From: an uncultured Gammaproteobacteria bacterium
GTDB lineage: Bacteria > Patescibacteriota > Microgenomatia > Daviesbacterales > UBA10151
DNA length: 53,865 nt
Direction of reading: 5' to 3'
Assembly: GCA_964504665.1 (NCBI GenBank)
Contig: CAZDEH010000006.1
Location: 1-53,865, forward strand
In this document: piece after piece, positions 8,277 to 41,047 of the stretch
Layout: each line of letters starts with the position of its first letter
How positions within the stretch are numbered: position 1 is the stretch's first letter
Made by a program: the position numbers and the translations under genes
The notes under the pieces: generated by a model
What the model was told of the DNA's origin: nothing
The model's input: only the letters and a program-made list of their open reading frames with translations
The model's database searches: none

Positions 8277-8281
8277 CTATT

Positions 8282-8821: not shown

Positions 8822-8825
8822 TTTT

Positions 8826-11060: not shown

Positions 11061-11061
11061 G

Positions 11062-11874: not shown

Positions 11875-12945
11875 CTAGTGCATAAGAAAGATTCTTATTC
11901 TTTTAAAAGCGAAAAAGAAGCTTTGTTTTATCAATGTGATTCTAGCCGGATTATTAACCATGCTTATTAATTTTAAATAGTGATAAAGTAGTTTTAGAAA
12001 ATCATATTTTGTATAAACGCCAACGAATAATTCTGCTCTTTTCTCTCTCAAATCTTCCTGTTTTTGAAAATATACTATTCTTTTTTTATCAAGTAATGAT
12101 TTTTTATTTGGTTTAGCGATAAAATATGAGAACATTTGTGGAACCTTTTTTAAGTCAGTATACTTTTTATCGGCGGCTAGGACCTCGTTCATGTATTTAT
12201 CTAAAATGTTGTGACGTAACTTATTTAATTTTGGATTATGAGTCAAAATCATATAAGCAATGCCACCACCGGTATCATGACGTTCAATAATGTCGAAATA
12301 TCGGGATAAAGATTCAAAAATAAGTTCAGAATGGATTGCTTCTGTTGGATCATGATGCAGCATTGTTGCTAGGTGTGGGTAATCAAGATGATCTTTTCTT
12401 ATATTAGTTGGTAAAGAGTTGTTAATTTGATGGATGTAGAACCATTGCCTTAAAGGATATTGATTACGGTGAGGACCAATATAGTCAAAGTTGACAAAAA
12501 TTCCACCTTCCTTGAGAGTTTTTGCTAAAACACAACTAAGTCGGTTAATATATTGAACATGATGTAATGCAGCAACATTAACAATTAGATCAAACTGATT
12601 TTCTTTAAAAACAACTTTGTTAACATCGGCTTTTAAATACTTGATTTGTCTATTTTTTCTTCCCTCCTCAGCTCCTTTTAAAAGCTCTTCTGAATAATCA
12701 AACGCAGTCGCTTTTAAAACAATTTTTCTGTCTATAAATTCTCTTTCAACCCATCCGTTTCCGCAATTAAGGAAAAGTCCGTTTTTAAGCGGTTTTTTTG
12801 CAAAACGTTCTTTAAAATCATCCATCCAATATTTGTTCTTATCTCCAGTGAAGTTTTGCGACATATATTCAAGTACTTTTGGAAAATCATTCCAATACTT
12901 TCCACTGTAATAAATCTTGCTATTTTTATTTACAACTGTACTCAT
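11875..12945 (-). CDS. Class I SAM-dependent methyltransferase with a C-terminal extension
   Basis: LFLNCGNGWVEREF (motif I-like), ATAFDYSEELL and FDLIVNVAALHHVQYINRLSCVLAKTLKEGGIFV. Its start overlaps the stop of the upstream gene by 4 nt. Confidence 0.7.
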   Translation of the reverse strand: MSTVVNKNSKIYYSGKYWNDFPKVLEYMSQNFTGDKNKYWMDDFKERFAKKPLKNGLFLNCGNGWVEREFIDRKIVLKATAFDYSEELLKGAEEGRKNRQIKYLKADVNKVVFKENQFDLIVNVAALHHVQYINRLSCVLAKTLKEGGIFVNFDYIGPHRNQYPLRQWFYIHQINNSLPTNIRKDHLDYPHLATMLHHDPTEAIHSELIFESLSRYFDIIERHDTGGGIAYMILTHNPKLNKLRHNILDKYMNEVLAADKKYTDLKKVPQMFSYFIAKPNKKSLLDKKRIVYFQKQEDLREKRAELFVGVYTKYDFLKLLYHYLKLISMVNNPARITLIKQSFFFAFKRIRIFLMH

Positions 12946-15065
12946 AATTTTTTAATGTTCTTAATTTGATTAAAACAAGCAAAGAGTTTTATTCCAAAAT
13001 AAATTGCCATAAATACATTGATTAAAAATAAAATAAGAAAAAACTCTTTTGGTACATCCCAATAATACAGAAACTTAATCCACCATAAATCAGGAGTTCT
13101 CTCAAATATTTGGGTATGAATCATCCATGATTGCCAGGGGTTATTTAATACTCCTCCATAGTTTTGATATTTAGATTGATTCATAGCAGGACCAAGATCT
13201 GAGATATAAGGAAAATCTAAGCTTTCCAGATTTGTTGGTTTTCCGTTGATATAAAGCCCCAACAGTGCAATTAATTGTTTATGTGCTTTGACAATACTCT
13301 GATCCTCGAAATTGGTATCGATTAAAAGTTGATTATCTTTTTCTTTAAGTAGGAAGTTTGGAATGAGGATGTCTATATCGGATCTTTTTCCTAATACCAG
13401 TGAGGCAAATTCACTATTGACTCTTTTTTGGTTTATAAAAATATTTATTTTTGCAGAAGAAGTTGATTCTGCAAGAGGATGGTTTATTAAAGTTAAGGAG
13501 ATTTTTTTAATTGGATCTTTTAAATTATTATCAAAAGAAATGTAGCCCTGATTGTCGATCGCACGCCATCTTTCTCCTCCAACACTGAAAGGAAAATCTA
13601 TGCCGTCGTAAAATCTAACATTATATGAACCATGTTCTAAAGTCTGAGGAAACGATCTAGTTAAATTTTTTAATTGTCTAGTAAAAGGAAATATCGGAGA
13701 AAGTTGGGGGATAATATTCATATAATCAAAAGAGGTGTAATGGTATCCTGAAATTACAACATCAGTCTGTAAATTATGAAGTTTTGTTTGATATGGTATG
13801 GTAATTCCTAAAATTTCCACAAACAAGCCCGCTGCTAAAAGTGGAGCAACCACAAAAATCTTTGCTTTGTTACCAAGTTGCTTATAAACATGGCCTACTA
13901 TTAACATTCCGAAAGGAATAAGCGGTAGTAAATATCTTGGTCCCCAGCTAAGTTCTCCATGCCAATAGCTAATAAGTTTATTATAGCCATTTTCAAACTG
14001 GAGTTGTTTAGCGTATAAAAGAATATAACTAAAACAAAGTATTAAGAATATTATTAGTTCAGGTCTGATTATTTTTTTAATTTTATACCAAAAAATTAAT
14101 ATGAGAAGTAATATTGGAGAATAAAGGAAAATACTTCTTCCCGGGCTTAATAATTGTTCGTATATTCCTTCAAATACTAACGGAATTTGTGATGGTGTAG
14201 CTACATACTGTGCATAATTTACAAAGTAAGTAGGGTTAGCATAACCTATTCCTGAAACAGCTCTCAGATTTTCAAACCAAAAATAAACAAGAAAAAAAGG
14301 AAGTAGTGTAATTAGAGCAATTAAACAATCTCTTAGAATTAATTTACCACAACGCATATTTAGTAAAGGTTTTGTTAAGAGAAGATAGTAGACAATAAGG
14401 GGGATTACTGATAATAGAAATGTTTGATTATAAAGAGTAGAAACTATTCCGAAAGCTATAACTGAAAATATTAAAAAAATCTTCTTTTTCTTTTCTGTGT
14501 ATTTTTTTAATAAATAAAAAGAAAGAAACAAAAAAGAAGTAAATATCATATGGGCATAAATATGTTTAGATAAGGCAAATAAGTTTGTGGTAAATATTGA
14601 AACAAAACTTAAAAAGATAGCCTGTTTGATAGATAATTGAATTTTGAGAAAATAAAGAAAAAGAATTACTCCCAATAAAGCTGTGTATACAATATTTGTA
14701 AAACTAGCAGCAAATAAAATAAACCAATCCGATTCTAAGGGGAAATGAACTGGAGGGGTAATATGATAAATTTTATAAACAATATCTGCTAAAAAAACTG
14801 CTGGGAGCATAGCTAGTGAATATCCCAAACCAGTTCCGCTATACGGCTTACCATTTTTACCAATTTGTGTATTAAAATGAATGTTTTTGCCAACCCAAAC
14901 GCCGCCGGTAAACTCATAAGGCGGACCGGTTGGTTCATGTTGATAATAAATATTTCTGGCAACAGCTAAATATTGGAAGCCATCTTGAGAATCAATAACT
15001 CCTGAAACAAATAAGGAACTAAAGAAAATAAGAAAGAAAAAATAGCAGATGATTAGCTTGTGCAT
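12942..15065 (-). CDS. Polytopic membrane protein, GT-C-fold glycosyltransferase candidate (ArnT/PMT-like) with a large C-terminal extracytoplasmic domain
   Basis: 707 aa with more than 10 TM helices. An acidic first-loop motif follows TM1 (VIDSQDGFQYLAVARNIYY). A soluble domain of about 250 aa precedes a final TM helix. Confidence 0.6.
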   Translation of the reverse strand: MHKLIICYFFFLIFFSSLFVSGVIDSQDGFQYLAVARNIYYQHEPTGPPYEFTGGVWVGKNIHFNTQIGKNGKPYSGTGLGYSLAMLPAVFLADIVYKIYHITPPVHFPLESDWFILFAASFTNIVYTALLGVILFLYFLKIQLSIKQAIFLSFVSIFTTNLFALSKHIYAHMIFTSFLFLSFYLLKKYTEKKKKIFLIFSVIAFGIVSTLYNQTFLLSVIPLIVYYLLLTKPLLNMRCGKLILRDCLIALITLLPFFLVYFWFENLRAVSGIGYANPTYFVNYAQYVATPSQIPLVFEGIYEQLLSPGRSIFLYSPILLLILIFWYKIKKIIRPELIIFLILCFSYILLYAKQLQFENGYNKLISYWHGELSWGPRYLLPLIPFGMLIVGHVYKQLGNKAKIFVVAPLLAAGLFVEILGITIPYQTKLHNLQTDVVISGYHYTSFDYMNIIPQLSPIFPFTRQLKNLTRSFPQTLEHGSYNVRFYDGIDFPFSVGGERWRAIDNQGYISFDNNLKDPIKKISLTLINHPLAESTSSAKINIFINQKRVNSEFASLVLGKRSDIDILIPNFLLKEKDNQLLIDTNFEDQSIVKAHKQLIALLGLYINGKPTNLESLDFPYISDLGPAMNQSKYQNYGGVLNNPWQSWMIHTQIFERTPDLWWIKFLYYWDVPKEFFLILFLINVFMAIYFGIKLFACFNQIKNIKKL

Positions 15066-15134
15066 GCGTATTACATTCTAACATGATTTACTTAAGATAT
15101 AGTAGAATACAGAAATAATAATTGATTTAAGAAT

Positions 15135-16871
15135 ATGATTAGTTTTTTCAAAAACCATTCTTTTAATATACTTTCCTTTATTTTTTTCCTATCCTTAAAT
15201 GCTTTTATATATCGGTCTTTAATATTAAATTTATCGACTAACCTTCTTGATTGGAATGACTACCCTCTCTTTGTCTGGATTATGCAACATAATATTGATA
15301 ATTTTCAGCAATTAGCATTCCAAAATTTTTTTAACACAAACATATTTTATCCATTTCAGGGCAATCTTTTATTTTCAGATTTATTTCTGCCAACAAGCGT
15401 AGTAGGATATTTAGTACAAATTTTTGTTAAAAGCCCCGTTGCTATATTTAATACAGTATTTTTTCTGGTATTGGCAATTAACCCAATAGCTTGTTTTTTC
15501 TTCTGGAAAAATTTCTTTTCTTCTAAGTGGACAGTATTTTTTGCGACATTAACCACTGCTTTTTCACCTTTTGTAGTTTTAAATTCCTATCATTTTCAAA
15601 TGCTTAATATTTGGTCGTTATTTTTTTGTCTTGGATTTTTACTAAGGAAGGAACTATCTTTCAGAAGTGCAATATTCGGGGGTGTATTTTTGGCAATACA
15701 ATTTTTGTCGGGTATTTATTATGCAATTTTTGCATTATTTATTATTACCGTTTGGTATGTAATAAAAAGCTGCGAGATAAAAAAATCCAAAATAAAATTA
15801 CTCAATTTGTTGCGAAGGCTTTTTGTATTCACGCTTACTTTTTTAATTCTAGCAGGATTTTTTATCATTAAATATTTACAGGTTAAAAATGCCTATAATA
15901 TTACCCGTGATTATTGGGAATATGTAATTTATGCTTCTCATCCCACGGATTATATTTTTTCCCAATTTCAAAGTTTACTTGCAGAAACCGGTTTTTGGAA
16001 AAGGTGGAATAGTTTTAGCAATCATGGATCATCTGCAAGCTTTCCTGGTTTTGTCTTGCTGATTTTTAGTTTGATAGGTATCTTTAACTATCAGGTAGTT
16101 AACAAAATAAAGAGTATTTCTTTAAAGCTAACAAATATATCTATATTTTTTCTAATTCTTCTAATATGTGGATTTGTTTTCTCTTTAGGTCCTCGTTTAA
16201 GCGTAAACGGCGTTTATCTCGCAATTCCCTTACCATATTCAATTGTTTTAAAACTGGCTCCACCGCTATTTGAACCAATAAGGGCGGATTCCCGCTGGGC
16301 TTTTCTTGTTTTTTTTAGTTTAACTTATTTTTCATGTATTGGAATTCAAAAAATTGCAAAGTCGATAAAAAAGGAAATAATTGTAGTGCTGGCTCTATCT
16401 TTATTTTATATGATTGAAATAATTCCTATAAGTAGGAATACAGAGTCAAAGCAATTTTATAATCCTGTTTATGACACGCTTCAAAATCAATGTTCTGCAA
16501 GTAAGCAAGTAGTGTTAGAATATCCATTAACTCAAGATAAGAAAGATGCGGATATTGTTACTAACTTATCGTATAAGACTCAGATGCTATTGGCGAGTCT
16601 TACACATAAATGTAATATTGTAAATGGTTATAGTGGATATACTCCGAAGGATTACGAAAGTTACGAAACTGAGCTGTATACTATTGTTCCTGTTGGGGGC
16701 AAGGATAGGTTTTACCAGCTTTTAAAAGAAAGAAATGTTAATCTCTTTAAGTTAAATAAAAAAGAAATTTATTCAAATAAGGCGGAATCAATAGAGGAGT
16801 GGCTTCAAGATAGCAAAAGGTATGTTATATTAATCGAAAATGAGACTTATGTAATTGCAAAGCTCTTATGA
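15135..16871 (+). CDS. Polytopic membrane protein, GT-C-like glycosyltransferase candidate
   Basis: 578 aa with many TM helices. The first loop after TM1 reads STNLLDWNDYPLFVW. A C-terminal soluble domain is present. Confidence 0.5.
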   Translation: MISFFKNHSFNILSFIFFLSLNAFIYRSLILNLSTNLLDWNDYPLFVWIMQHNIDNFQQLAFQNFFNTNIFYPFQGNLLFSDLFLPTSVVGYLVQIFVKSPVAIFNTVFFLVLAINPIACFFFWKNFFSSKWTVFFATLTTAFSPFVVLNSYHFQMLNIWSLFFCLGFLLRKELSFRSAIFGGVFLAIQFLSGIYYAIFALFIITVWYVIKSCEIKKSKIKLLNLLRRLFVFTLTFLILAGFFIIKYLQVKNAYNITRDYWEYVIYASHPTDYIFSQFQSLLAETGFWKRWNSFSNHGSSASFPGFVLLIFSLIGIFNYQVVNKIKSISLKLTNISIFFLILLICGFVFSLGPRLSVNGVYLAIPLPYSIVLKLAPPLFEPIRADSRWAFLVFFSLTYFSCIGIQKIAKSIKKEIIVVLALSLFYMIEIIPISRNTESKQFYNPVYDTLQNQCSASKQVVLEYPLTQDKKDADIVTNLSYKTQMLLASLTHKCNIVNGYSGYTPKDYESYETELYTIVPVGGKDRFYQLLKERNVNLFKLNKKEIYSNKAESIEEWLQDSKRYVILIENETYVIAKLL

Positions 16872-18286
16872 GATTCAAACAATCATTAGTATCAATAATC
16901 ATTATTAATTATAATGGTAAATGTTTTTTAGATGAGTGTTTGGGTTCTTTACAGAAAATTAATTTCCCTAAAAATAATTATGAAGTTATCGTGGTAGATA
17001 ATAATTCCGAGGATACCTCTGTAGAATATACCAGAACACATTATCCTGAAGTAAAAATTATTGAGAATAAACAAAATTTTGGATTTGCTAGTGGTTGTAA
17101 TATAGGAGTAAGTAACGCCAAAGGTGAGTATGTTACTTTTTTAAATACCGATACTAAAGTAGAGACAGATTGGCTCACGTATCTTGTTAAAAGAATTAAA
17201 TCAGACAAAACGATAGCTGCTGTAAACTCCAAAATTTTCCTATATTTTCCTTTTATTGAAATATCAATAAAATCAGATGTTTTTATGCGTTCGGAATTTA
17301 CTAATTCTATAAATTTTCAAGCAGCAGGAATTTTACTTGAAAATATCTTTCTCGAGAATAAATCGCTACAACACTTAGTAAGATATGCAAAGGGATTCTA
17401 TGAAAAAGAAAAAGGTTCAATTCCCTTACGTTGGACTAAAGGTGATGCTTCAATAATTTTACCATGTGACCCAAGGCGGAAGAATGTTGGTTTTATTTTA
17501 ACGATTAGATCTGAAAAATCCAGTTCCAATTTAAAAACAAAAATATTAATTAAATTAGGAGATAAAATCTTAGTTGAGGATAATCTAAGGTCTCATGAAA
17601 TAAAACAATATGAAGTAGATTTAAAAACGTCGGAAATAAAGAAATATTTTTTGTATGCTGTGCAAAATAGCGGAGTTGTTGTTTTTAAAGATGGGTATGG
17701 TAGGGATCGTGGTGCAGTAGTGAAGGCAGACAAAACATGTATATATGAGCTGGATAATTATTTTTATGAAAACTCATGCGGCATCATTTCTTTTTGTGGA
17801 GCTAGTGTTTTAATGAGAAGAGACTTATTTGAAAAAAGCGGAGGATTTGATCAGTCGTTCTTCATGTATTATGAAGATGTTGATATGAGCTTAAAATTTA
17901 AACGATCTAACTGGAAAATCGTCTATGAACCACGTTCAATAGTCTATCATATTCATGCAGGCTCGAGCGGGGAATGGTCACCTCTATTTGTGTTTCATAC
18001 TGAAAAAAACCGACTTGCACTACTTATCAAACATTTCCCCTTACATGTTTTTTTCGAAGAATTGATAAAGTATTTTTTCGTTTTAGGAGTATCCATATTA
18101 AAAATGATAAAGTGGAGGTTAAAAGAACATTGGGATCTTGTTGAAGAGTGGGAAGTGAAGGTAAAGTTAAGAATCAGAGTGATTAGATTTATCTTTATAA
18201 ATTTTATACCTCTTTTTAAAAAGAGATCAATTATTAACAGAAAGAGCAAAATTAGTATGAAAAAACTTTATCAAAGTCTTTATTAA
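16868..18286 (+). CDS. Family 2 glycosyltransferase with an inserted domain of about 140 aa
   Basis: VSIIIINYNGKCFLDECLGSL, VIVVDNNSEDTS, NFGFASGCNIG, FLNTDTKV and, further on, GASVLMRRDLFEKSGGFDQSFFMYYEDVDMSLKF. Confidence 0.85.
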   Translation: MRFKQSLVSIIIINYNGKCFLDECLGSLQKINFPKNNYEVIVVDNNSEDTSVEYTRTHYPEVKIIENKQNFGFASGCNIGVSNAKGEYVTFLNTDTKVETDWLTYLVKRIKSDKTIAAVNSKIFLYFPFIEISIKSDVFMRSEFTNSINFQAAGILLENIFLENKSLQHLVRYAKGFYEKEKGSIPLRWTKGDASIILPCDPRRKNVGFILTIRSEKSSSNLKTKILIKLGDKILVEDNLRSHEIKQYEVDLKTSEIKKYFLYAVQNSGVVVFKDGYGRDRGAVVKADKTCIYELDNYFYENSCGIISFCGASVLMRRDLFEKSGGFDQSFFMYYEDVDMSLKFKRSNWKIVYEPRSIVYHIHAGSSGEWSPLFVFHTEKNRLALLIKHFPLHVFFEELIKYFFVLGVSILKMIKWRLKEHWDLVEEWEVKVKLRIRVIRFIFINFIPLFKKRSIINRKSKISMKKLYQSLY

Positions 18287-18290
18287 TAAT

Positions 18291-19832
18291 ATGAGAAAAA
18301 TACTTAAGGCGGGAGTATATGATCGTTGGCTGTATTCTTTAGGTGGAGGAGAACAACTAGCCTTTGCTTATGCTTTGGCTTTACGGGATTTAGGATATCA
18401 AACAGAGCTTTTAACCCATAAAAAAGTTGATCTGGTAGTTGCAGAGAAGAAAATGAATGTTAATCTTCACGGCATAGAATTAAAATATTTGCCCAATATG
18501 CTTGATTATCAACTTAGTCAATATACTGAAAATTATGATGTTTTTATTTGTAACTCTTATTTAGATTATATTCCTAACAGAAGTAAATTTGGGATTTTAT
18601 CTATTTTTTTCCCTTCCAGAATTCATCTTTCTGTATATGAATATTTTAAGCGAGCTTTAGTTGTGCCTTCTCTACGAAAATTTTTTATTTATCCATCGAG
18701 ATTTGAAGGATTTCGTTATGATGAGAGTGTTGGTAAAAAAATATTCAAATGGCTGGGTAAAAAGTCAACAATTGTTTTTAATCAAGATATCAGGGATTTT
18801 CATATTGAACTACATTTTGGGTATTTTGCCTTCTCTCTGATAGATAGTATTTCATTTTCTTTAGATAAAGAGGTTGTAGTACCCTTATCAAGAAGTGCTG
18901 ACTTAAATAATAATTGTGTAAGCTACTCATTTAAATTTACCAAACCAACAAAGGGATTCGGTCTATCGATATATTTACCGGATTTAGAGTTCAGTGAAGA
19001 TGTTGCTTTGACTAAAATTTTAATTCTAAATTACCGTTATTTTTTCTATAACATATTTAAGAAATTCTTTCCGAAATGGGAAATGAGGCTTCATGGTGGA
19101 CCGTCAGTCACGAAATTCTCCGATATTAAATCTTATGATAGGATACTTACAATTTCTAAATTTTCGAGAAAATGGATAGAAAAATATTGGCATGTTTCAA
19201 GCGATATTTTATATCCTCCAGCTTCGATAAACAGTTTCTCTCCATCGAAAGATAAAAAAAATATTATTGTAAATATTGGACGTTTTTTCGTAACGGGCCA
19301 TTGCAAGAAACAACTAGACATGGTTAGGGTATTTAAGAAGCTGGTAGATAGTGGAAGAAAGGATTGGGAGCTCCATTTTATAGGTAGCGTCGCTGAGGGT
19401 GATTTGCACCGCAAATATTTCGAAACAACGGAGGAAGAATCCCTGGGATATCCTATTTTTTTCTATAATAATGCGACGTTTGCGGAACTCCGGGAAATAT
19501 TATCTAAGGCAAAAATATACTGGCATGCTACAGGTTTAGATGAAAATCCGGAAAATAATCCAATAAGATTGGAACACTTTGGCATTACTACAATTGAGGC
19601 AATGGCTTCTGGCTGTGTTCCTGTTGTTATTAATCTTGGTGGACAGTCGGAAATAGTTACTTCTGGAGCAGGTTTTCTTTGGAATAATAGAGATGAATTA
19701 TTACTTTACACCAAAAAACTTATAAATAACCCAAAACTCATAAAAGAAATGAGTCTGAAAGCGATAGAAAGAAGCAAATTCTTTGATATAGAAAATTTTA
19801 AAAGAGAGCTTAAAAAATATTTACCTCTTTAG
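18291..19832 (+). CDS. GT4 (GT-B fold) glycosyltransferase with a long N-terminal region
   Basis: The C-terminal EX7E-type motif is EHFGITTIEAMASGCVPVVINLGG. Confidence 0.8.
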   Translation: MRKILKAGVYDRWLYSLGGGEQLAFAYALALRDLGYQTELLTHKKVDLVVAEKKMNVNLHGIELKYLPNMLDYQLSQYTENYDVFICNSYLDYIPNRSKFGILSIFFPSRIHLSVYEYFKRALVVPSLRKFFIYPSRFEGFRYDESVGKKIFKWLGKKSTIVFNQDIRDFHIELHFGYFAFSLIDSISFSLDKEVVVPLSRSADLNNNCVSYSFKFTKPTKGFGLSIYLPDLEFSEDVALTKILILNYRYFFYNIFKKFFPKWEMRLHGGPSVTKFSDIKSYDRILTISKFSRKWIEKYWHVSSDILYPPASINSFSPSKDKKNIIVNIGRFFVTGHCKKQLDMVRVFKKLVDSGRKDWELHFIGSVAEGDLHRKYFETTEEESLGYPIFFYNNATFAELREILSKAKIYWHATGLDENPENNPIRLEHFGITTIEAMASGCVPVVINLGGQSEIVTSGAGFLWNNRDELLLYTKKLINNPKLIKEMSLKAIERSKFFDIENFKRELKKYLPL

Positions 19833-20563: not shown

Positions 20564-20634
20564 ATTCTTCTGAAGATTATTACAAATTTATAGATTTCTT
20601 TCAATAAGTAATCACTTTAGTGTAAAATTTAGTA

Positions 20635-23692: not shown

Positions 23693-23695
23693 ATA

Positions 23696-26545: not shown

Positions 26546-26588
26546 GCGATGCCAAAGTAAGCTATATTTGTTACAATAAAGATACTTT

Positions 26589-27608: not shown

Positions 27609-28869
27609 ACTCTTTTCGCATACTTTCTTACTAATCTTATCTGTACTATTTATCGCTACTCTTGTGAGATTTATTAATTTTGAAAATCGTATGAATTTCG
27701 GACCCGAACAAGCGATCTCTCTAAGTGTTGCAGCCGACTATATAAATGAAAAATTTAGCCTACTTGGAGAACCAAATGTTCAAAGAGTAACGTCTTACGG
27801 TCATCGGATTTTTCACCCGCCTGTTTTTAACTATAGTTTAATTCCTCTACTGGTTGTTTTTAATTATGATCCCATACCCGTTACTGTTTTTTTTGGTTTA
27901 TTGAATCTAGGGACTGGTGTGGTTTTGTTTTGGGTAATAAAAAATAATATAAATATGAAAGTAGCCCTTTTTTCTTTAATTTTATTTCTGTTCAACTCCG
28001 TCATGATTCAACACTCTCTATTTATCTGGAATCAAAACTATATTCCCCTTTTATCAATTTTTATTGGATTTTGGATTTATAAAATAAAAATAGCAAATGG
28101 AAAAGATGATTTCAAACATGCTTTATTAATAGGTATTTTTTCGGGAATCATACTGGGAATTGAATTCCTTTTTCTCGTAACTATGGTATTTATATCTGGG
28201 TTCATATTTTATTTTTCTAAACGAAAGATACAAGTAATAAGTGGTATGTTAATCGGACTTGTGATTTCTCTATCCCCAATGATTTTATTTGACGTTAGGC
28301 ATCAATTTTATTTTATGAATACTCTAATACAATATTTTATTGACACTCTGAAAGCACCGGGACAGAACAATTTAAGCTATTATCACTTTTTTCAATTTTG
28401 GCCACCCTTAGTTTTGCTTGGTGGATTCATTCTTTCGAAAATTTACGCAAGAACTTCTTTGTTGGCAAGTTGTATGCTTATAGCATATATGCTATTTAAC
28501 TTATTTTCTCCACAGGTAAATTTTACAAAGGCAGTTGGAATGAATATAAATTTAAATTATCCTAAACTTGCAGAGGCAGCTAAAGCTATAGCGGAAGATA
28601 AACCGGTAAGTTTTAATGTGGTTACAACATGGGATTTTGATAGTCAGGCTCATCCTTTGCGATACCTTATGAAGTACCGCTATAACTTAAATCCTGCTAA
28701 CACTGAAGATTACCATAATATAAAAAATCTTTACGTTATGTCTAGTTCTGATTATAATTTTCAAAAAACGTCTTTATACGAGATTGCAAGTTTTCGTCCA
28801 TTTAATGTTGCACTTTTGAAGAATATAGATAATGATTATAGTGTTTTTAAATTAAGCCAAGAAAAATAA
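27601..28869 (+). CDS. Polytopic membrane protein, GT-C-like glycosyltransferase candidate
   Basis: 422 aa and multi-TM. The first loop reads FENRMNFGPEQAISLSVA. Confidence 0.45.
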   Translation: MPRLFSHTFLLILSVLFIATLVRFINFENRMNFGPEQAISLSVAADYINEKFSLLGEPNVQRVTSYGHRIFHPPVFNYSLIPLLVVFNYDPIPVTVFFGLLNLGTGVVLFWVIKNNINMKVALFSLILFLFNSVMIQHSLFIWNQNYIPLLSIFIGFWIYKIKIANGKDDFKHALLIGIFSGIILGIEFLFLVTMVFISGFIFYFSKRKIQVISGMLIGLVISLSPMILFDVRHQFYFMNTLIQYFIDTLKAPGQNNLSYYHFFQFWPPLVLLGGFILSKIYARTSLLASCMLIAYMLFNLFSPQVNFTKAVGMNINLNYPKLAEAAKAIAEDKPVSFNVVTTWDFDSQAHPLRYLMKYRYNLNPANTEDYHNIKNLYVMSSSDYNFQKTSLYEIASFRPFNVALLKNIDNDYSVFKLSQEK

Positions 28870-28870
28870 A

Positions 28871-30022
28871 ATGAAAATTTGGATTGATGGTTATGAAGCA
28901 AATGTTCCTCAAAGATTAGGTTCTTCACAAGTAGCCTTTAAACTTTTATGCCATCTGGAAAAAATAGATTATAAAAACGAATATACTGTTCTTTTACCAT
29001 TTTCTCCACTACAAGATTTACCAAAGGAGAGAAGTGGGTGGAATTATAAAATATTAAGGCCAAATAAACTCTGGACCAGAATTGCGCTCCCTTTTGCTTT
29101 ATATACTGCCAAGGTTAAACCGGATCTGATTTATTCACCTACCCACTACATTCCGCGTTTTTCGCCAGTAAAACGAATAGTAACAATTTTTGATCTTTCT
29201 TATTTACATTTTCCAGACATGATACCAAAAGGAGATTTATGGAAAATGGTGCATTGGGGCAAATTTTCTATCGAAAACTCTGATCATATTATAACAATTT
29301 CTAATTTTTCTCAGAAAGATATTATTAAAAATTATCATATTGATAAAGAAAGAATAACTGTTGCCTATCCTGGGTTTGATAGAGATGTTTTTAAACCAGT
29401 AAAAAATAATGATCAAATTGAACAGATAAAACAAAAATATAATATATCTGGAAAATACGTTATGTATATAGGAACCCTTCAGCCGAGGAAGAATCTGATC
29501 AGATTGATAGAGGCAATAAAACCAATCGAAGGACTTAAACTTGTCATTGTCGGAAAGACTAATGGACTTGGTAGACAAGGTTGGATGTTTGAAGAAATCT
29601 TAACTAAACCTAAAGCTTTAGGAATTGAAGAAAAAATTATTTTTACAGGTTTTATACCAACTCAAGAGCTACCGTATCTTTTATCTGGGGCTGAAACATT
29701 TATATTACCATCACTCTGGGAGGGTTTTGGCATACCTGTTGTTGAAGCTATGGCTTGTGGAACACCTGTAATAGTTTCAGATGTTTCATCTCTTCCGGAA
29801 GTGGTTGGAGAAGTAGGTATATTGGTTGATCCTAAATCTGTAACTCAAATTGAACAAGCCATTAGAGTAATTACAGTGGACAAAAAACTTAGAGAAAAAA
29901 AAGCTAAACAAGGACTCATTCAGGCGAGTAAGTTTTCCTGGGATAAAATGGCAAAAACAGTATTAAAGGTTTTTGAGCTCACTCACACTAAGTCTACATT
30001 AAGTAATACCGAAAAATTATGA
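28871..30022 (+). CDS. GT4 glycosyltransferase
   Basis: [43 protein letters not shown]. Confidence 0.88.
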
Positions 30023-30921
30023 CGAAAATATCAATAGTTATTCCCTATTGGAATGGAGCAGAAAAAATACAAAGATATTTACCTGATGTTTTAAAATTTG
30101 CACGTACCAATAATGTTGAAGAGGTTATTGCTTCAGATGATAGTTCCACTGATGATACTGTGCAACTTCTGAAAAATGAATTCCCGGATGTTGTGGTTAT
30201 TGAGAGGGAGCATAACGAAGGTTTTTCATCAAACGTTAATACCGGATTTTCTAAGGCGAAAGGGGATTTTGTTTTTCTCATAAATAGTGATGCGATGCCA
30301 GGGGAAGCAGTTTTTAAATATGCCATGCCACATTTTGACGACAAGAGAGTTTTTAGTGTGGGTTGTAATACAGGGGGGCTTTGGGCTATTGGTGGATTTA
30401 AAAATGGATTCTTTTGGCACGATCAGGCACGCAAGGCTGGTCCTTGCGAGGCTACAGTACACCAAACGCTTTGGGTATCAGGGGGTTCAGGTGTTTTCCG
30501 TAAATCAATGTGGGATAAAATGGGTGGTTTGGATGAATTATATAATCCGTTTTATGTAGAAGATCTCGATCTTGGGTATCGGGCAACAAAACGAGGATAT
30601 ATAAATATTTGGGAACCTAAAAGTAAAGTAGATCATTACACCGAAAAAGGAGTGATAGAAAGCAATTTTTCTCGCGATAAAATTAATTATACAGCAGAAA
30701 GAAATATGCTGATTTTTATTTGGAAAAATATAACCAACGAGAAATTGATTAGTGATCATAAATTAGCTTTAACAAAACGGCTATTTTCTCATCCTAAATA
30801 TTGGTTGGTATTTTTAGCAGCCCTGCGTCAATATCCAGCAATTATGAGAAAAAGGGAAATAGAGAAACAAGAAGCTAAACTATCTGATGAAGAAATTTTT
30901 GGTATTTTTGAAGGCGTTTAG
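30019..30921 (+). CDS. Family 2 glycosyltransferase
   Basis: ISIVIPYWNGAEKIQ, IASDDSSTDDTV, HNEGFSSNVNTG, LINSDAMP and FYVEDLDLGYRATKRG. There is an ATGA overlap with the upstream gene. Confidence 0.85.
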   Translation: MTKISIVIPYWNGAEKIQRYLPDVLKFARTNNVEEVIASDDSSTDDTVQLLKNEFPDVVVIEREHNEGFSSNVNTGFSKAKGDFVFLINSDAMPGEAVFKYAMPHFDDKRVFSVGCNTGGLWAIGGFKNGFFWHDQARKAGPCEATVHQTLWVSGGSGVFRKSMWDKMGGLDELYNPFYVEDLDLGYRATKRGYINIWEPKSKVDHYTEKGVIESNFSRDKINYTAERNMLIFIWKNITNEKLISDHKLALTKRLFSHPKYWLVFLAALRQYPAIMRKREIEKQEAKLSDEEIFGIFEGV

Positions 30922-30936
30922 TATATAATTTATAAG

Positions 30937-31539
30937 ATGAGTATTTTTAAAGATAAAATGGGAAAAGATTTAAATTCTGCCCAAGCTTTTAAAAAAATTA
31001 TTAATCGGTTATATAATTATATTATTGATATAGAATTATTATTCGTCCGTCTGGCAGGCTTTATACCCATACACACTTTTCGTTGGTTAATATATAGAGC
31101 AGCAGGAGTAAAAATTCCATTTGGTTCTCATATTCACATGGGGGCTCAGTTTTTTTATCCTGCAGGAGTTGAGATAGGGAATGATTCAATTATAGGACAA
31201 GGAGTATTTTTGGATGGAAGAGCTAACCTGAAAATTGGGAGTCATGTAGATATTGCCTCAGATGTGATGATTTATAATTCCGAACATGATATTAATGCTG
31301 AAGATTTTCATGCTGTAAATGGAGAAGTGGAAATAGGAGATTATGTTTTTATCGGACCAAGGGTCATTATTTTGCCTGGGGTGAAAGTTGGTAAAGGAGC
31401 TGTGATAGCAGCAGGTGCGGTAGTTACTAAAAATGTTTCGGAGTATGCCATCGTTGGAGGAGTACCCGCTAAAGTTATTGGGGAAAGAAACGCTAAGGAT
31501 TTACATTATAAGTTAGGAAGAGCAAGACTGTTCCAATAA
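30937..31539 (+). CDS. Hexapeptide-repeat (LbH) O-acetyltransferase with an N-terminal hydrophobic segment
   Basis: Hexapeptide repeats run through VEIGNDSIIGQGVFLDGRANLKIGSHVDIASDVMIY..VEIGDYVFIGPRVIILPGVKVGKGAVIAAGAVVTKNV..IVGGVPAKVIG. Confidence 0.8.
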   Translation: MSIFKDKMGKDLNSAQAFKKIINRLYNYIIDIELLFVRLAGFIPIHTFRWLIYRAAGVKIPFGSHIHMGAQFFYPAGVEIGNDSIIGQGVFLDGRANLKIGSHVDIASDVMIYNSEHDINAEDFHAVNGEVEIGDYVFIGPRVIILPGVKVGKGAVIAAGAVVTKNVSEYAIVGGVPAKVIGERNAKDLHYKLGRARLFQ

Positions 31540-31543
31540 AACA

Positions 31544-32095
31544 ATGCGCAGAACTATTTTTTTGTTTTTTTCATTTATTTTATTGCTCTATTTATTAATA
31601 CCAGGTCCATCCTCCATTAAAGATTTTCCTACATTACCCAGTTCAGTTAAATCAAATCTTGAGGGGGATACCATCCAAGTCCCTAATATTTCTGCCTATT
31701 TCTCTGATAATTACCGATCATTTGCCACTAATTTCTATAAAAATAGCTACGAAAACAGTGTATTAATGCCTTTGCTACCAATTCGACTAAATTATCCCCC
31801 GGAATTTGCATATATGGCTATTATGGATCAAACAAGGAGCACATATCTTGAAGAATACATCTACCCGCTTCGAGATTCTCTTTATGTTAATGGTTATGAG
31901 CCATTTTATGAAAATGGTAAACCTAAGTTCTGGGGTTCAGTGAAGGCTGATGAGGAAAATGGAACTTATTTTAATAAGACGACTTTAAGATATTATCCGT
32001 CATCCTATCTTGTAAGAGTAATAGTTTGGTTAGGAATAATACTATCAATTTCTTTTATCTGGAAAGTAGGAAGGAGAATTTTTCTTAATGGTTGA
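31544..32095 (+). CDS. Hypothetical bitopic membrane protein (TM helices at both ends, extracytoplasmic middle)
   Basis: 183 aa. The N-terminal helix is IFLFFSFILLLYLLI and the C-terminal helix is VIVWLGIILSISFIW. The gene is tightly packed between its neighbours. Confidence 0.5.
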   Translation: MRRTIFLFFSFILLLYLLIPGPSSIKDFPTLPSSVKSNLEGDTIQVPNISAYFSDNYRSFATNFYKNSYENSVLMPLLPIRLNYPPEFAYMAIMDQTRSTYLEEYIYPLRDSLYVNGYEPFYENGKPKFWGSVKADEENGTYFNKTTLRYYPSSYLVRVIVWLGIILSISFIWKVGRRIFLNG

Positions 32096-32981
32096 TCTTG
32101 CAATTATTGTCGTGAATTATAGAACTAAAGAACTTACTCAAAAATGTTTGAGATCTATATATAATAGTAAACCAAAAAATAAATTCGAAGTATGGGTGGT
32201 TGATAACAATTCTTCTGATAATTCTTTAGTAGTACTTAAAAAAGAATTTCCTCAAGTTAACATGATTGAAAGCGATAAAAATTTAGGATTTTCCGGAGGA
32301 AATAATCTGGTATTAAAAAAGGCTAAGGCAAAATATTATTTACTTCTTAACTCTGATACCGAAATTAGAGGGCATGCTTTAGAGAATCTCTGTGAGTTTG
32401 CAGAAACTTCTGATTTTGGGATAATGTCCTGTAAATTGTTAAACTACGATGGTAGTTTCCAACCTAATGGAGGTGAGCTACCAACTATTTTCCCGTTATT
32501 CTTTTGGTTATCCGGTCTCGATGACATTTTTAGAAAGTTTCTTAATATTCCATCTTACCAATCCAGAGGCAAGGAATATTATATAGATAATAAACAAATT
32601 GGTTGGGTATCAGGGTCAGTCATGTTAATAAAAAATGAGGTAATGGAGAAAATAGGTTTATTGGACGACCAAATCTTTATGTATGGAGAAGATGTGGAAT
32701 ACTGCTTTAGAGCAAACCGGGTTGGATTTAAAGTCGGGTGGACTGATCAAGCTGAAGTAATGCATTTAGGAGGAGTTAGTTCTAAAACTCCTCAATATAA
32801 TCAATGGATAGGGGAATTCAAGGGTTTAATTTATATTTATCATAAGTTTTTTGGCTCTTTTATGGCTTTTCTCCTTAAAACGCTGATGTATGTTTTTATT
32901 GTAGCAAGAATAATTGGTTTCTTAATTGTTGGTAAAATATTGTACTCACGTACTTATGCAAAAATTTTTGTCAATCTCTGA
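32088..32981 (+). CDS. Family 2 glycosyltransferase
   Basis: LAIIVVNYRTKELTQKCL, WVVDNNSSDNS, NLGFSGGNN, LLNSDTEI and MYGEDVEYCFR. Confidence 0.88.
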   Translation: MVDLAIIVVNYRTKELTQKCLRSIYNSKPKNKFEVWVVDNNSSDNSLVVLKKEFPQVNMIESDKNLGFSGGNNLVLKKAKAKYYLLLNSDTEIRGHALENLCEFAETSDFGIMSCKLLNYDGSFQPNGGELPTIFPLFFWLSGLDDIFRKFLNIPSYQSRGKEYYIDNKQIGWVSGSVMLIKNEVMEKIGLLDDQIFMYGEDVEYCFRANRVGFKVGWTDQAEVMHLGGVSSKTPQYNQWIGEFKGLIYIYHKFFGSFMAFLLKTLMYVFIVARIIGFLIVGKILYSRTYAKIFVNL

Positions 32982-34368
32982 AAAAAGTTTTTTTTGGGTA
33001 GTACTATTTTTAGTGGTATTTATTCCGTTATACCCTAAATTTCCTTTAATGAATGTTAACGGAACTTTTGTTGCTATTAGGGTAGAGGATATTATGATTG
33101 CAATAGCACTTGGTTGGTGGGCTATCTATATATATTTTTCTAAACAAGTTACAAAAATTCTTTCAAATAGATTAAATCAGGCTTTAATTTTATTTTTTTT
33201 CATCGGAGGAATCTCGCTTTTTTCAGGTATATTTTTAACAAAAACTATCAGTTTAAATTTAGCTATATTTCATTTTTTGAGAAGAATTGAGCTAATGATG
33301 TTATTGCCAGTTGCTTATCAAGCCATTATCTCCAGGAAACAGATAAAATTGTTACTAATAACATTGTCGATGGTACTCTTTATTGCTAATCTTTATGCCT
33401 TAGGTCAGAAATACCTAGGCTGGCCTGTTATTTCAACAAATAACTCAGAATTTTCGAAAGGATTAATTTTATATCTTAGTCCAGATGCTAGGGTAAGCTC
33501 TACTTTTGCAGGTCATTATGATTTTGCTATATATCTAGCTGTAAGCATTGTAATAATCTCTGCCCTGATATTTACTAATAAAAAACTACTTGTTCTTATC
33601 TGGCAAGGCGTTTTGTTGTGTTTATCATTTTTCACTTTAGTTTTAACGGCAGCCAGATTATCTTTTGCCGCTGTTTTAATGGGAATAGTTGTATCCTTGT
33701 TGCTTAGCGGTAAAAGGTTGTTTATTTTTCTAGTAATTGGAGCTGGTATTATTGTATTAATTTACCCTTCTCAGTTGCGGGATCGTCTTATCTCAACAGT
33801 TACAATAAATATATTACAAGAAGGGGATCGTTATACAGCAGAAACGGATATACAAGAAGAGAGAAGCCAACTTAATATCCCCACTCTGCCCCATGAAGAT
33901 TCAACCGATTCTGCGGAAATGGTTAAAACAACTGGTATCCCGTCAGATATTACACCTGGGGAACCGACTGACTATTCACAAATGGCTGTATACCGATCAT
34001 CAAGAATAAGATTTTATTACGAGTGGCCACGTGCAATCCGAGCATTTATTAAAAATCCGTTTTTAGGTACAGGATACTCTTCCTTGGGTTTAGCAACGGA
34101 TAACGATTTTTTAAGATCATTGGGAGAAGTTGGGTTACTGGGAACAATTGCTTTCTTTTTAATATTGGTTGAGATAACTAAAATTATTTGGAGTAATTTT
34201 AGATTTTTTTCGGATAAATTATTAAGATATTTCTCTATAGGGTTACTTAGTATGATCGTAGTGTTATTCATTAACAGCATGTTTATTGATGTCTTTGAGG
34301 CATCTAAAATTGCAACATTGTTTTGGATAATTGCAGGAGTGGGTGTATCTATGGAAAAACTTAAATGA
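32956..34368 (+). CDS. O-antigen ligase / Wzy-like polymerase family membrane protein
   Basis: Multi-TM with a large late loop, followed by FIKNPFLGTGYSSLGLATDNDFLRSLGEVGLLG (Wzy_C-like). The track ORF begins at a TTG (32926). The ATG at 32956 is the more likely start. Confidence 0.68.
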   Translation: MQKFLSISEKSFFWVVLFLVVFIPLYPKFPLMNVNGTFVAIRVEDIMIAIALGWWAIYIYFSKQVTKILSNRLNQALILFFFIGGISLFSGIFLTKTISLNLAIFHFLRRIELMMLLPVAYQAIISRKQIKLLLITLSMVLFIANLYALGQKYLGWPVISTNNSEFSKGLILYLSPDARVSSTFAGHYDFAIYLAVSIVIISALIFTNKKLLVLIWQGVLLCLSFFTLVLTAARLSFAAVLMGIVVSLLLSGKRLFIFLVIGAGIIVLIYPSQLRDRLISTVTINILQEGDRYTAETDIQEERSQLNIPTLPHEDSTDSAEMVKTTGIPSDITPGEPTDYSQMAVYRSSRIRFYYEWPRAIRAFIKNPFLGTGYSSLGLATDNDFLRSLGEVGLLGTIAFFLILVEITKIIWSNFRFFSDKLLRYFSIGLLSMIVVLFINSMFIDVFEASKIATLFWIIAGVGVSMEKLK

Positions 34369-35834
34369 AAATAATTAAAAATCCTCTCTTCTGGTTAGGG
34401 ATTATATTAATAATAGGTTTTGTTGTTCGTTTATATAAAATAGATACACCTCTCGCTGATTGGCATTCTTGGAGACAAGCTGATACTGCTGCTGTTGCAA
34501 GGAATTTTTTCAAAGAAGGCTACACTCCATTTATTCCTAAATACGATGATATGTCCGGTGTGGCAGAAAATCCCGTTCCCAACCCTAACAGGTATCGTTT
34601 TGTGGAGTTTCCGATCTACAATAGCTTAATTTATTTTTCGTACATAATTAATGGTGGAGTAGATATTAAGTTAGCAAGGTTTATTTCTATATTAATGTCA
34701 CTAGGATCAATTACATTTCTATATTTAATTGTAAGGAGGCAATGGGATACACTCACCGGTTTAATTTCAGCTTTAGTTTTTGCTATTTTGCCATATAATA
34801 TTTTTTATTCCAGGGTAATTTTACCGGAACCCACTCTCATTTTTTTCTCATTGGGGATGTTATACTTTACAGATTTATGGATTTGGAAAAATAGCCGAGG
34901 GTTTTATTTTCTATCTATTTTTTTTACAGCTTGTGCTTTCTTGATAAAGCCGGTTGCCATATTCTACTTATTACCTTTAATTTATTCATATTGCAAAAAA
35001 GAAGGAAAATTATGGCCAATTCCCAGACGATACTATTTATGGATAGTATTATCGTTTATGCCTTTTGTGGCTTGGAGGATGTGGATGTTAAATTTTCCGG
35101 AAGGTATTCCCGCTTCAAACTGGTTATTTAATGGAAATCATATTAGATTCAGACCTGCTTTTTGGAGGTGGATATTTGGTGATCGCTTAGGAAGGGAAAT
35201 CTTAACAATGGCAGGTACTTTCCTCTTCTTCTTTGGATTAATCAAACAGCCAGATAAAGGAGGGTATCTGTTGCATCTGCTTGCGCTATCATCTTTTTTG
35301 TATCTCTTTATTTTTGCAACAGGTAATGTTACTCATGATTATTATCAGACTCTAATTGTTCCTGCTTTGTCAATTTTTGTGGCTTACGGACTTATTAATC
35401 TTTTCCGGGGTTTTAACGGAATTATTCCACGTTTATATACGATTCCTCTAGGATTATTAATGCTTTCTCTAACTTTATATTTAGGGTGGTATGAAATTAA
35501 AGGATTATATCAAATAAATAACGGAGTAATTGTTGAAGCAGGTGAGTTTGCAGATAAAATTTTGCCGAAAAGTGCAATAGTAGTAGCTCCATATGGAGGG
35601 GATACTGCTTTTTTATATCAAACCAACCGTCACGGATTTGCATATTCAGTTCTTCCTGTTGTTGATTTAGTCAAAACTTACGGAGTCCATTATTATATTT
35701 CAGTTGATTATAATGATAAAACAAATTGGGTGATACGAAATTTTAAGGTTATAGAAAAAAATCCAAAATTTGTCATTGCAGATTTAACAGAACCAATTGT
35801 CACACCTGGGGCTACTTTGGAAAAAGAACCGTAA
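34365..35834 (+). CDS. GT-C glycosyltransferase candidate (ArnT/GT39-like)
   Basis: 489 aa and multi-TM. The first-loop motif is LADWHSWRQADTAAVARNF. There is an ATGA overlap with the upstream gene. Confidence 0.62.
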   Translation: MKIIKNPLFWLGIILIIGFVVRLYKIDTPLADWHSWRQADTAAVARNFFKEGYTPFIPKYDDMSGVAENPVPNPNRYRFVEFPIYNSLIYFSYIINGGVDIKLARFISILMSLGSITFLYLIVRRQWDTLTGLISALVFAILPYNIFYSRVILPEPTLIFFSLGMLYFTDLWIWKNSRGFYFLSIFFTACAFLIKPVAIFYLLPLIYSYCKKEGKLWPIPRRYYLWIVLSFMPFVAWRMWMLNFPEGIPASNWLFNGNHIRFRPAFWRWIFGDRLGREILTMAGTFLFFFGLIKQPDKGGYLLHLLALSSFLYLFIFATGNVTHDYYQTLIVPALSIFVAYGLINLFRGFNGIIPRLYTIPLGLLMLSLTLYLGWYEIKGLYQINNGVIVEAGEFADKILPKSAIVVAPYGGDTAFLYQTNRHGFAYSVLPVVDLVKTYGVHYYISVDYNDKTNWVIRNFKVIEKNPKFVIADLTEPIVTPGATLEKEP

Positions 35835-35841
35835 TAATACA

Positions 35842-41045: not shown

Positions 41046-41047
41046 AT

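Follow-up and report, generated by a model that had tools for sequence, protein, structure and literature searches.

A stretch of DNA of 53,865 bp with a GC content of 32% (the complete contig CAZDEH010000006.1 of assembly GCA_964504665.1; hereafter, the window) encodes eight polytopic membrane proteins, designated here M1 to M8. As a whole, they are best explained as eight glycosyltransferases (GTs) of the GT-C class that belong to one envelope glycan cluster of a Patescibacteria (Microgenomates-type) bacterium and would act in a stepwise manner, a reading to which we give a probability of roughly two in three. The GT-C-like identity had been proposed in an original prediction made from the DNA letters alone. 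It was borne out by matches of M6 and M8 to the Pfam family PMT_2, by structure models of M3 and M4 that recovered only GT-C proteins, and by family and profile ties for the other four.

We confirmed the position, strand and length of all eight predicted open reading frames (ORFs). M1 (12942-15065, minus strand, 707 aa), which carries a 254-aa domain of the extracytoplasmic type and, at the C-terminus, one additional transmembrane (TM) helix, is assigned to the PMT/PMT_2 superfamily of GT-C proteins. The other seven genes are on the plus strand. M2 (15135-16871, 578 aa) belongs to the DUF6311 family and is a probable GT-C protein, the weakest assignment among the eight. M3 (20635-22254, 539 aa) has a GT-C fold and comes from a family that is restricted to Patescibacteria, and M4 (22244-23692, 482 aa) has a GT-C fold and comes from a large family; neither family has a Pfam model. 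M5 (23696-25111, 471 aa) is distantly related to PMT_2 and has a DD motif, M6 (25112-26545, 477 aa) and M8 (34365-35834, 489 aa) are members of the PMT_2 family, and M7 (27601-28869, 422 aa) is a divergent paralogue of M4. Hydropathy gave 7-11 TM-like segments per protein, including an N-terminal hydrophobic helix. The C-terminal soluble domain that had been predicted for most of the proteins was found in all eight, as a non-TM region of 100-254 aa (translation and hydropathy).

The evidence for the fold came from several directions. Against Pfam PMT_2 (PF13231; gathering threshold, 26.1 bits), M6 and M8 scored above the cutoff, with 49.1 bits (E = 1e-12) and 41.6 bits (E = 1.9e-10), respectively. 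A direct Pfam scan of the M1, M2, M3, M4, M5 and M7 sequences gave no match to this model at E<=0.1; these six are therefore classed as superfamily relatives and not as PMT_2 members. In NCBIfam, M6 (E = 3e-5) and M8 (E = 4e-4) also gave marginal partial matches to archaeal STT3, both far short of the cutoff. Family alignments were assembled for M3, M5 and M2 from a word-indexed protein search (A1, A2 and A3), for M4 from an exhaustive search of representatives (A4), and for M1 and M6 from the ORFs of related genomic loci (A5 and A6). When Pfam was scanned member by member, no consistent family emerged for the M3, M2 and M4 families. Public records label the orthologues mostly as "hypothetical protein", with one UniRef entry bearing an automatic "RgtA/B/C/D-like domain" label.

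Structure models, built with AlphaFold2 and compared with the PDB by Foldseek, cover M3 and M4. The M3 family had neither a Pfam match nor a PDB sequence match. The M3 model (pLDDT 89, pTM 0.88) nevertheless returned 21 best matches that were all GT-C proteins, with ArnT at E = 8e-7 (TM-score 0.57-0.59), followed by PglB (2.6e-6), STT3 (3.6e-6), ALG9, ALG12, DPY19, AftA and AftB. Similarly, for M4, whose family comprises 811 representatives at E<=1e-3 in the exhaustive search, the model (pLDDT 93, pTM 0.92) recovered essentially only GT-C proteins at ranks 1-27: ALG12 (1.6e-4) and ArnT (3.8e-4), with TM-scores of up to 0.59, and further AglB, STT3, ALG9, ALG3, PglB, AftD, EmbB, AftB and Pmt1/2/4. 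ArnT was thus the best or second-best structural match of both proteins. No GT-C chain was recovered when the PDB was searched by sequence (phmmer) and by profile (hmmsearch) with M6, M8 and the six family alignments, and comparing sequences alone with solved structures therefore gives no information here.

For the remaining proteins, the ties run through families and profiles. M1 showed a weak, sub-threshold NCBIfam match to the LA_3751/LA_3752 putative glycosyltransferase (E = 1.5e-8), and within its family PMT_2 was matched by 8 of 21 members (best E = 6e-8) and PMT by 3 of 21. Among the matches listed, 13 of 119 homologues of M5 carried a precomputed PMT_2 (PF13231) annotation, and 44 of 119 homologues of M2 (P0251-P0369) a precomputed PF19830 (DUF6311) annotation. 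In the current copy of Pfam-A, the DUF6311 match was seen in none of 33 M2-family members, unlike in the precomputed annotation, which suggests that the Pfam model has since been removed or altered; a literature search found no paper on this family. M7 was matched by the M4-family hidden Markov model (HMM) at E = 8e-17. Other HMM cross-matches linked M1 with M4 (2e-7), M1 with M6 (7e-6), M4 with M6 (5e-6) and M2 with M6 (9e-5, the M6 HMM matching an M2-family member).

Profile-profile comparison with hhalign, which yielded useful results only when both sides were family profiles (single sequences and shallow alignments gave almost nothing), connected the M6 family with the M5 family at 95.7% probability (E = 1e-8), with the M1 family at 94.5% (E = 8e-8), with M8 at 93.4% and with the M4 family at 91.1%, and the M4 family with M7 at 97.9%. 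The M2 family was linked with the M6 family at 87.7%, with the M3 family at 71% and with the M4 family at 56%, compared with at most 1.2% to the controls. The alignments were collinear starting at the N-terminus. As controls we used family profiles of Wzy_C, the ABC-2 permease and MraY, unrelated polytopic proteins from the same loci, and all 18 control comparisons (three controls against six GT-C profiles) stayed at or below 4.1%.

Could the eight proteins instead be Wzy-type polymerases, flippases or other polytopic folds that share the composition and an N-terminal acidic stretch with GT-C enzymes? Six of the eight have no Pfam match of their own, the PDB sequence and profile searches returned no GT-C, and acidic residues after the first TM helix are expected by chance (see below), all of which would be compatible with this idea. 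On the other hand, only GT-C proteins were significant in the structure searches with M3 and M4, PMT_2 was matched at the family level by M1 and M5, and the profile-profile links were specific relative to the controls. A Wzy polymerase or flippase identity was rejected for M1-M8: none has a Wzy_C match, none of the six GT-C family profiles exceeded 4.1% against the Wzy_C profile of the locus, and the real Wzy_C protein encoded there is unrelated to all eight. We consider a non-GT-C identity highly improbable. M3, M4, M6 and M8 are each almost certainly GT-C-fold proteins; M1, M5 and M7 very probably are, and M2, judged from its sequence relatives, probably is as well.

The acidic motifs that had been noticed after the first TM helix are present in all eight proteins, no more than 20 residues beyond it: DSQDGFQY in M1, LDWNDYP in M2, PDAFHY in M3, GDIGRDH in M4, GDDWYH in M5, LDEAIN in M6, GPEQAI in M7 and RQADTA in M8. 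With the 10.7% of Asp plus Glu in the soluble regions, acidic residues would turn up there by chance with a probability of about 0.9 for any one protein and of about 0.42 for the eight together. Their presence does not go beyond chance, and the evidential weight therefore lies in their conservation within the families. We scored residues as invariant or as conserved at >=90% in family alignments of 25-50% mean identity. The conserved residues of the first loop were D25 (>=90%), S26, and D28 (invariant), in M1; D39, W40 and D42 in M2, with D42 invariant; E42, P43, P45, D46 and Y50 in M3, with E42 and D46 invariant; D43, R46 and D47 in M4, all invariant; D30, D31 and W32 in M5, with D30 and D31 invariant; and D29 and E30 in M6, both invariant. 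In the M5 family, Y62-R63-P64 is also invariant, and the M8 motif DWHSWRQADTAAV is unchanged in an orthologue of 39% overall identity. Furthermore, D29 of M6, D30 of M5, D43 of M4, D42 of M2 and E36 of M7 fall in the same column of the profile alignments, and D30/D31 of M5 align onto D29/E30 of M6.

On which side of the membrane does this loop lie? A crude hydropathy-based count of Lys plus Arg (positive-inside rule) favored placing the N-terminus in the cytoplasm for M2, M3, M4, M7 and M8, which would leave their first loop outside. The predicted outside position of the acidic loop is thus supported for these five of the eight, the other three being ambiguous. The C-terminal domains contain invariant cysteines in M2 (C453 and C493), M3 (C524 and C528) and M4 (C384 and C469, with C389 and C421 conserved at >=90%). 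The invariant cysteines suggest disulfides and, as far as such residues can tell, an extracytoplasmic location of these domains.

The eight proteins are only distantly related to each other. In an all-against-all BLASTP comparison, only M4 and M7 (21% identity, E = 5e-7) and M6 and M8 (47 aa, E = 6e-4) were paired, and the eight are therefore either old paralogues or unrelated at the sequence level. Recent duplication is ruled out by pairwise identities at or below detection, in agreement with the high divergence noted originally. M1-M8 fall into at least five deeply diverged families: M1; M2 (DUF6311); M3; M4 with M7; and M5, M6 and M8 within the PMT_2 radiation.

The genes are nevertheless closely packed. 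The predicted run of four consecutive genes, M3-M4-M5-M6 (20635-26545), was found with gaps of -11, +3 and 0 nt, and it opens a longer series of sixteen co-directional genes, from M3 through a GT4 gene ending at 39018, with spacings of -80 to +43 nt. This gene string is operon-like. Scans for promoter and terminator consensus sequences over 19.8-39.7 kb gave numbers equal to the shuffled expectation and were uninformative on the operon limits. At positions 20000-26000, the GC content of the window falls to its minimum (28.3-28.4%) and the AT skew is strongly negative (-0.145 to -0.16). Four consecutive membrane genes rich in Phe, Leu and Ile lie there. Their T-rich codons would fit this composition better than a foreign origin, and horizontal transfer need not be invoked.

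To see how widely this arrangement occurs, the M3 alignment was searched against one genome per GTDB species, which yielded 53 loci, found only in metagenome-assembled genomes (MAGs) of the Patescibacteria type. Informative record titles were Daviesbacteria, Roizmanbacteria, Woesebacteria, Paceibacterota, Falkowbacteria and "Patescibacteria group". The titles of 28 of the 53 MAG records read uncultured Gammaproteobacteria or Pseudomonadales (L003, L006, L009, L011-L018, L021, L025, L027-L031, L036, L037, L041, L044, L046-L048, L051, L054 and L055), with a GC content of 30-45% and contigs of up to about 1.1 Mb. Since these loci show the same gene order and similar GC, the titles are probably wrong and reflect placeholder or erroneous taxonomy in third-party annotation (TPA) assemblies.

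Counting relatives no farther than 10 kb on either side of the M3 orthologue, we found M2 in 41 loci, M6 in 34, M1 in 27, M4/M7-like genes in 22, Wzy_C in 18, and M5 and M8 in one locus each. The core M1, M2, GT2, GT1, GT2, M3, M6 is kept from Microgenomates to Paceibacteria. In close relatives the gene run reads GT2 (minus strand), M3, in some cases a radical S-adenosylmethionine (SAM) gene, M4-like, M5, M6 and another GT-C-like gene. By the family HMMs, the 34 loci of >=20 kb hold 1-6 GT-C-type ORFs (median 4) per ~21.6 kb, compared with 7 per ~21.6 kb, or 8 in 22.9 kb, in the window. The counts for the related loci are lower bounds, because further GT-C families occur as well. One such protein, not captured by the six family HMMs, is a 377-aa product encoded directly upstream of an M6 orthologue (L001:16667-17800), with a weak match to Mannosyl_trans2 (PIG-V/GT76-like). 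The window is thus the richest example here of a lineage-wide locus and not a singular oddity; a literature search found no paper on GT-C clusters in bacteria of the candidate phyla radiation (CPR)/Patescibacteria.

The comparison of genomes for copy-number variation, which had been proposed along with the prediction, revealed tandem or nearby duplications of M1 (L026:2416-6712) and of M2 (L037:5724-9172; L044:2018-3799 and 7444-9219; L051:5629-9144), and GT-C gene copy number therefore varies. Furthermore, ten Paceibacteria-type loci encode proteins of 1,037-1,247 aa in which Wzy_C is joined to a reduced M3-like module (L026:11444-14872, L029:17648-21028, L030:12688-16248, L031:12879-16277, L033:7679-11026, L035:15693-19058, L036:11570-15313, L040:12010-15444, L043:8299-11412 and L049:11639-15127). 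In these proteins, Wzy_C is complete and the M3-like part corresponds to positions ~8-165 and ~320-546 of the M3 HMM, with the central TM core missing. The fusion is gene-fusion evidence for the two acting together, and such a joining of Wzy_C to a GT-C-derived module appears to be undescribed.

The membrane proteins lie within a glycan cluster of ~36 kb (about 7.3-43.7 kb of the window), which adjoins a division/cell-wall operon. By Pfam, the cluster includes twelve soluble glycosyltransferases, six GT2 and six GT4/GT1, and its tailoring genes encode a WcaF-like acetyltransferase, three methyltransferases and one B12-radical-SAM enzyme. At the upstream edge, a GT2 gene (plus strand) and genes for a methyltransferase and a B12-binding radical SAM protein (both minus strand) occupy 7311-10235 and are probable tailoring genes (Pfam). 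An ABC-2 exporter follows at 10275-11844 (minus strand), consisting of a Wzt/TagH-like ATPase and a Wzm/TagG-like permease (Pfam ABC_tran and ABC2_membrane); its best NCBIfam matches, all below the cutoffs, were TagH (5e-63) and galactan-export Wzt (3e-53) and Wzm (6e-20). The gene for a 356-aa SAM-dependent methyltransferase (11875-12945, minus strand; Methyltransf_11, 7e-14) has the same orientation as M1 and overlaps its 3' end.

Between M2 and M3 lie a GT2 gene (472 aa) and a GT1/GT4-type gene (513 aa) at 16868-19832 (plus strand; Pfam), which are kept with M1, M2 and M3 in related loci (as a pair in L001 and L056), and a gene for a 244-aa soluble GT2 (19829-20563, minus strand) divergently oriented to M3. 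This small GT2 resembles polyprenyl-phosphate-sugar synthases. It matched AglJ (2e-26), PgfS (2e-19), ArnC (3e-17), PpgS (2e-12) and a Dol-P-hexose transferase (4e-11) in NCBIfam, all far below the family cutoffs, and it also adjoins the M3 orthologue in L001, L056 and L057. On these resemblances, it is a candidate maker of a lipid-linked donor.

Downstream, on the plus strand, a GT4 gene (26589-27608; Pfam Glycos_transf_1 and Glyco_transf_4) separates M6 from M7. It is followed, at 28871-32981, by genes for a GT4, a GT2, a WcaF-like hexapeptide O-acetyltransferase, a 183-aa bitopic protein and a second GT2 (Pfam, NCBIfam). The 183-aa ORF (31544-32095), between the acetyltransferase and the GT2, is hydrophobic at each end and matches no family. 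The membrane protein of the Wzy_C type (O-antigen ligase/polymerase; 32926-34368, Pfam Wzy_C 5.7e-12), which is not a GT-C protein, overlaps the start of M8, and soluble GT4, GT2 and GT4 genes (35797-39018; Pfam) close the co-directional string. Beyond it, 39912-43651 holds genes for a GT4, a small phosphoglycosyl transferase (Bac_transf, 6e-61) and a bitopic DUF4012 protein (5e-24). The phosphoglycosyl transferase (41048-41728; NCBIfam EPS_sugtrans, 1e-75) is of the type of initiating enzymes. No free intergenic ORF of >=60 aa was found between 7 and 44 kb.

How might these components work together? The analysis shows GT-C fold or superfamily membership, conserved acidic residues of the first loop, an operon-like arrangement and a core locus kept across Patescibacteria. 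From the families concerned, we infer donors, acceptors, an order of action and a location outside the membrane, and these steps are less certain than the reading as a whole. In the first step, the phosphoglycosyl transferase would start a glycan linked to polyprenyl diphosphate, which the twelve soluble GT-A/GT-B enzymes would extend in the cytoplasm. In the second, the TagGH/Wzm-Wzt-like ABC-2 transporter would export this glycan, and the Wzy_C protein would ligate or polymerise it. In the third, the Dpm1/GtrB/ArnC-like GT2 beside M3 would load sugars onto polyprenyl monophosphate. In the fourth, on the external side of the membrane, the GT-C enzymes would rely on the invariant Asp/Glu of the first loop to pass those sugars on, either to the glycan after its export or to proteins or lipids of the cell surface. 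The C-terminal domains, each of which is different, may select acceptors or linkages, by analogy with ArnT, PglB, Emb/Aft and the three-component systems.

Several observations weigh against this model. The Lys plus Arg count was ambiguous for M1, M5 and M6, and M2 is tied to GT-C by profile-profile links of 56-88% probability. There is only one clear candidate donor synthase for eight GT-C enzymes, and Pfam found no GtrA, MATE, Wzx or SMR flippase among the window ORFs of >=100 aa. M5, M7 and M8 are rare within 10 kb of M3 orthologues, so that all eight need not be bound into a single obligatory pathway. Moreover, M7 has Glu36 where the Asp of the M4 family is invariant and lacks the equivalents of R46 and D47; M7 may therefore be inactive or altered.

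This last point raises the possibility that M7, and perhaps M2, has a GT-C fold but is not a transferase, serving instead as a partner, a scaffold or a polymerase- or ligase-like protein, so that there would be fewer than eight glycosylation steps. The very few close orthologues of M7 and the membership of M2 in a DUF family with no characterised member would agree with such a role. However, D39 and D42 and many other residues of the first loop of M2 are invariant or nearly so among orthologues of 33-75% identity, and a Glu can take over catalysis or metal binding in GT-C enzymes, which would also accommodate M7. We regard non-catalytic roles as improbable.

Does the locus encode one assembly line, or a glycan "island" of independent extracytoplasmic glycosylation modules, each with its own acceptor? 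Such modules would be PMT-like protein O-glycosyltransferases acting on pilins, the S-layer or other surface proteins, ArnT-like lipid modifiers, and YfhO/GtrII-like side-chain glycosylases. The families of M1-M8 are mutually as divergent as distinct CAZy GT-C families, each protein has a different C-terminal domain, and loci differ in gene content: they hold 1-6 GT-C genes each, M1 or M2 is tandemly duplicated in some, and M5, M7 and M8 are mostly absent nearby. In addition, the PMT_2/PMT relatives include protein O-mannosyltransferases according to the Pfam descriptions, and the Wzy_C protein could be an O-oligosaccharyltransferase of the PglL/PilO type. Against this, M3-M8 stand in a tight co-directional string with soluble glycosyltransferases interleaved, the core of M1, M2, GT2, GT1, GT2, M3 and M6 is conserved from Microgenomates to Paceibacteria, and only one Dpm1-like donor synthase is visible. 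Independent modules are the chief alternative, possible if on balance unlikely. The original idea of a single programme of up to eight steps is thus favored by the operon-like string of M3-M8 and disfavored by the variability of M5, M7 and M8 across related loci, and it is not established.

The stepwise cluster model can be carried further, although in this form it becomes doubtful and is offered tentatively. The M1-M2-M3-M4-M6 core, together with the ABC exporter and Wzy_C, might build a major envelope polymer specific to Patescibacteria and assembled mostly outside the membrane, with M5, M7 and M8 diversifying it. That polymer would be a secondary cell-wall glycopolymer or lipoglycan, a functional counterpart of mycobacterial arabinogalactan that arose from unrelated GT-C families.

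Around these genes, we made several other observations. The B12-binding radical SAM gene (8826-10235, minus strand), beside the exporter, has as its best NCBIfam matches radical SAM enzymes of the C-/P-methyltransferase type and BchE. In the close relative L057, a B12-radical SAM gene (3775-5205) is inserted between the M3 and M4 orthologues. The recurrence of this family suggests a conserved tailoring step, possibly sugar C-methylation. Directly upstream of the cluster (2792-7258) are genes for 5-enolpyruvylshikimate-3-phosphate (EPSP) synthase, chorismate synthase and an intervening methyltransferase, and for a 393-aa protein with an FkbO/Hyg5-chorismatase-like region and a RidA domain. Aromatic biosynthesis is usually absent from this lineage. 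These genes could provide a route to a chorismate-derived (hydroxybenzoate-type) substituent. Farther upstream, a 646-aa soluble ORF (823-2763) has no Pfam or NCBIfam match.

On the other side of the cluster, the division/cell-wall (dcw) operon (46854-53482, plus strand) comprises mraZ, a penicillin-binding protein gene, murE, murF and mraY. The rsmH/mraW gene (39015-39926) lies on the minus strand inside the string of glycan genes, ~7 kb from mraZ and the rest of dcw, and recO and a class II tRNA synthetase gene are located between the two. A 195-aa ORF between both Mur ligase genes (50660-51247) has an FAD_binding_4 domain only and could be a short or truncated MurB-like gene.

Much of the diversity of bacteria lies in the CPR/Patescibacteria. 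Their genomes are about 1 Mb in size, and attachment to other cells is their usual way of life. To our knowledge, their surface chemistry is essentially unknown. The ~36 kb glycan cluster would correspond to roughly 3% of the typical 1-Mb genome of relatives, and its eight GT-C enzymes come from families that are mostly missed by current profile libraries, so that the GT-C fold would gain at least three uncharacterised families (M2/DUF6311, M3 and M4/M7). The cluster points to a surface glycan, as yet uncharacterised, most of whose assembly would take place outside the cell membrane. If the core does build a Patescibacteria-specific envelope polymer, that polymer would rank foremost among candidates for the surface structure by which such ultrasmall episymbionts make contact with their hosts. 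What the locus offers is not a new principle but a conserved, previously undescribed handle on the surface chemistry of a major uncultivated lineage, and the invariant Asp residues, the Dpm1-like GT2 and the exporter are concrete gene targets for work on the CPR envelope.

Among known systems, the ArnT/PMT_2 enzymes (CAZy GT83/GT39-like) resemble the window proteins in the acidic first loop and the C-terminal periplasmic-type domain, and M6 and M8 meet the family cutoff, as do the families of M1 and M5 in part. However, M1-M8 have no detectable sequence similarity to solved GT-C structures, M2, M3, M4 and M7 fail the Pfam model, and Patescibacteria are not known to have a lipid A target. The oligosaccharyltransferases PglB, AglB and STT3 gave strong structural matches to M3 and M4, but no STT3 Pfam match was found, no WWDYG motif was noted, no search aimed at it having been made, and the window proteins are much smaller (420-540 aa).

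The nearest precedents are three-component glycosylation systems and the assembly of mycobacterial arabinogalactan. Three-component systems combine a synthase, a flippase and a GT-C enzyme, as in GtrA/GtrB/GtrC, CsbB-GtcA-YfhO, PgfS-PgfM and PPPRS-MATE-GT136 (PMC11127046; PMC5836110). The window shares with them a Dpm1/GtrB/ArnC-like GT2 next to a GT-C gene (19829-20563 and M3), a pairing that is conserved, and the modification of a polymer after export, which the stepwise model would entail. On the other hand, the window has no identified flippase, one or two candidate synthases would have to supply eight GT-C enzymes, and none of its GT-C proteins matches GtrC, YfhO or GT136 (Pfam/NCBIfam). 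The locus is not a member of these systems.

In the Corynebacteriales, arabinogalactan and lipoarabinomannan (LAM) are made by way of a lipid-linked galactan exported by Wzm-Wzt, followed by the GT-C enzymes AftA-D, EmbA/B/C, MptA-C and PimE. Their donors are decaprenyl-P-arabinose or polyprenyl-P-mannose, and several of the enzymes are encoded in one region. The original claim that loci so rich in GT-C genes lie outside the known paradigms overlooked this system, as well as the lineage-wide Patescibacteria locus. GT-C elaboration of arabinogalactan/LAM in Corynebacteriales has also been alluded to in the literature (PMC11127046). The window differs from this pathway in several respects: the Arabinose_trans and Emb Pfam models were matched by none of the eight proteins, the window showed neither an epimerase gene nor one for a UbiA-type decaprenyl-phosphoribose synthase, the phylum is another one, and Wzy_C and a WbaP/PglC-type phosphoglycosyl transferase stand in place of WecA/GlfT chemistry. 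The likenesses are a lipid-linked polymer, presumably made by soluble glycosyltransferases, with ABC-2 export through a transporter nearest to TagH and galactan Wzm/Wzt (below cutoffs); many different GT-C genes close together beside cell-wall genes; and the presence of AftA, AftB, AftD and EmbB among the Foldseek matches of M3 and M4. The window locus is therefore an analogue, and not a member, of the mycobacterial arabinogalactan-type pathway.

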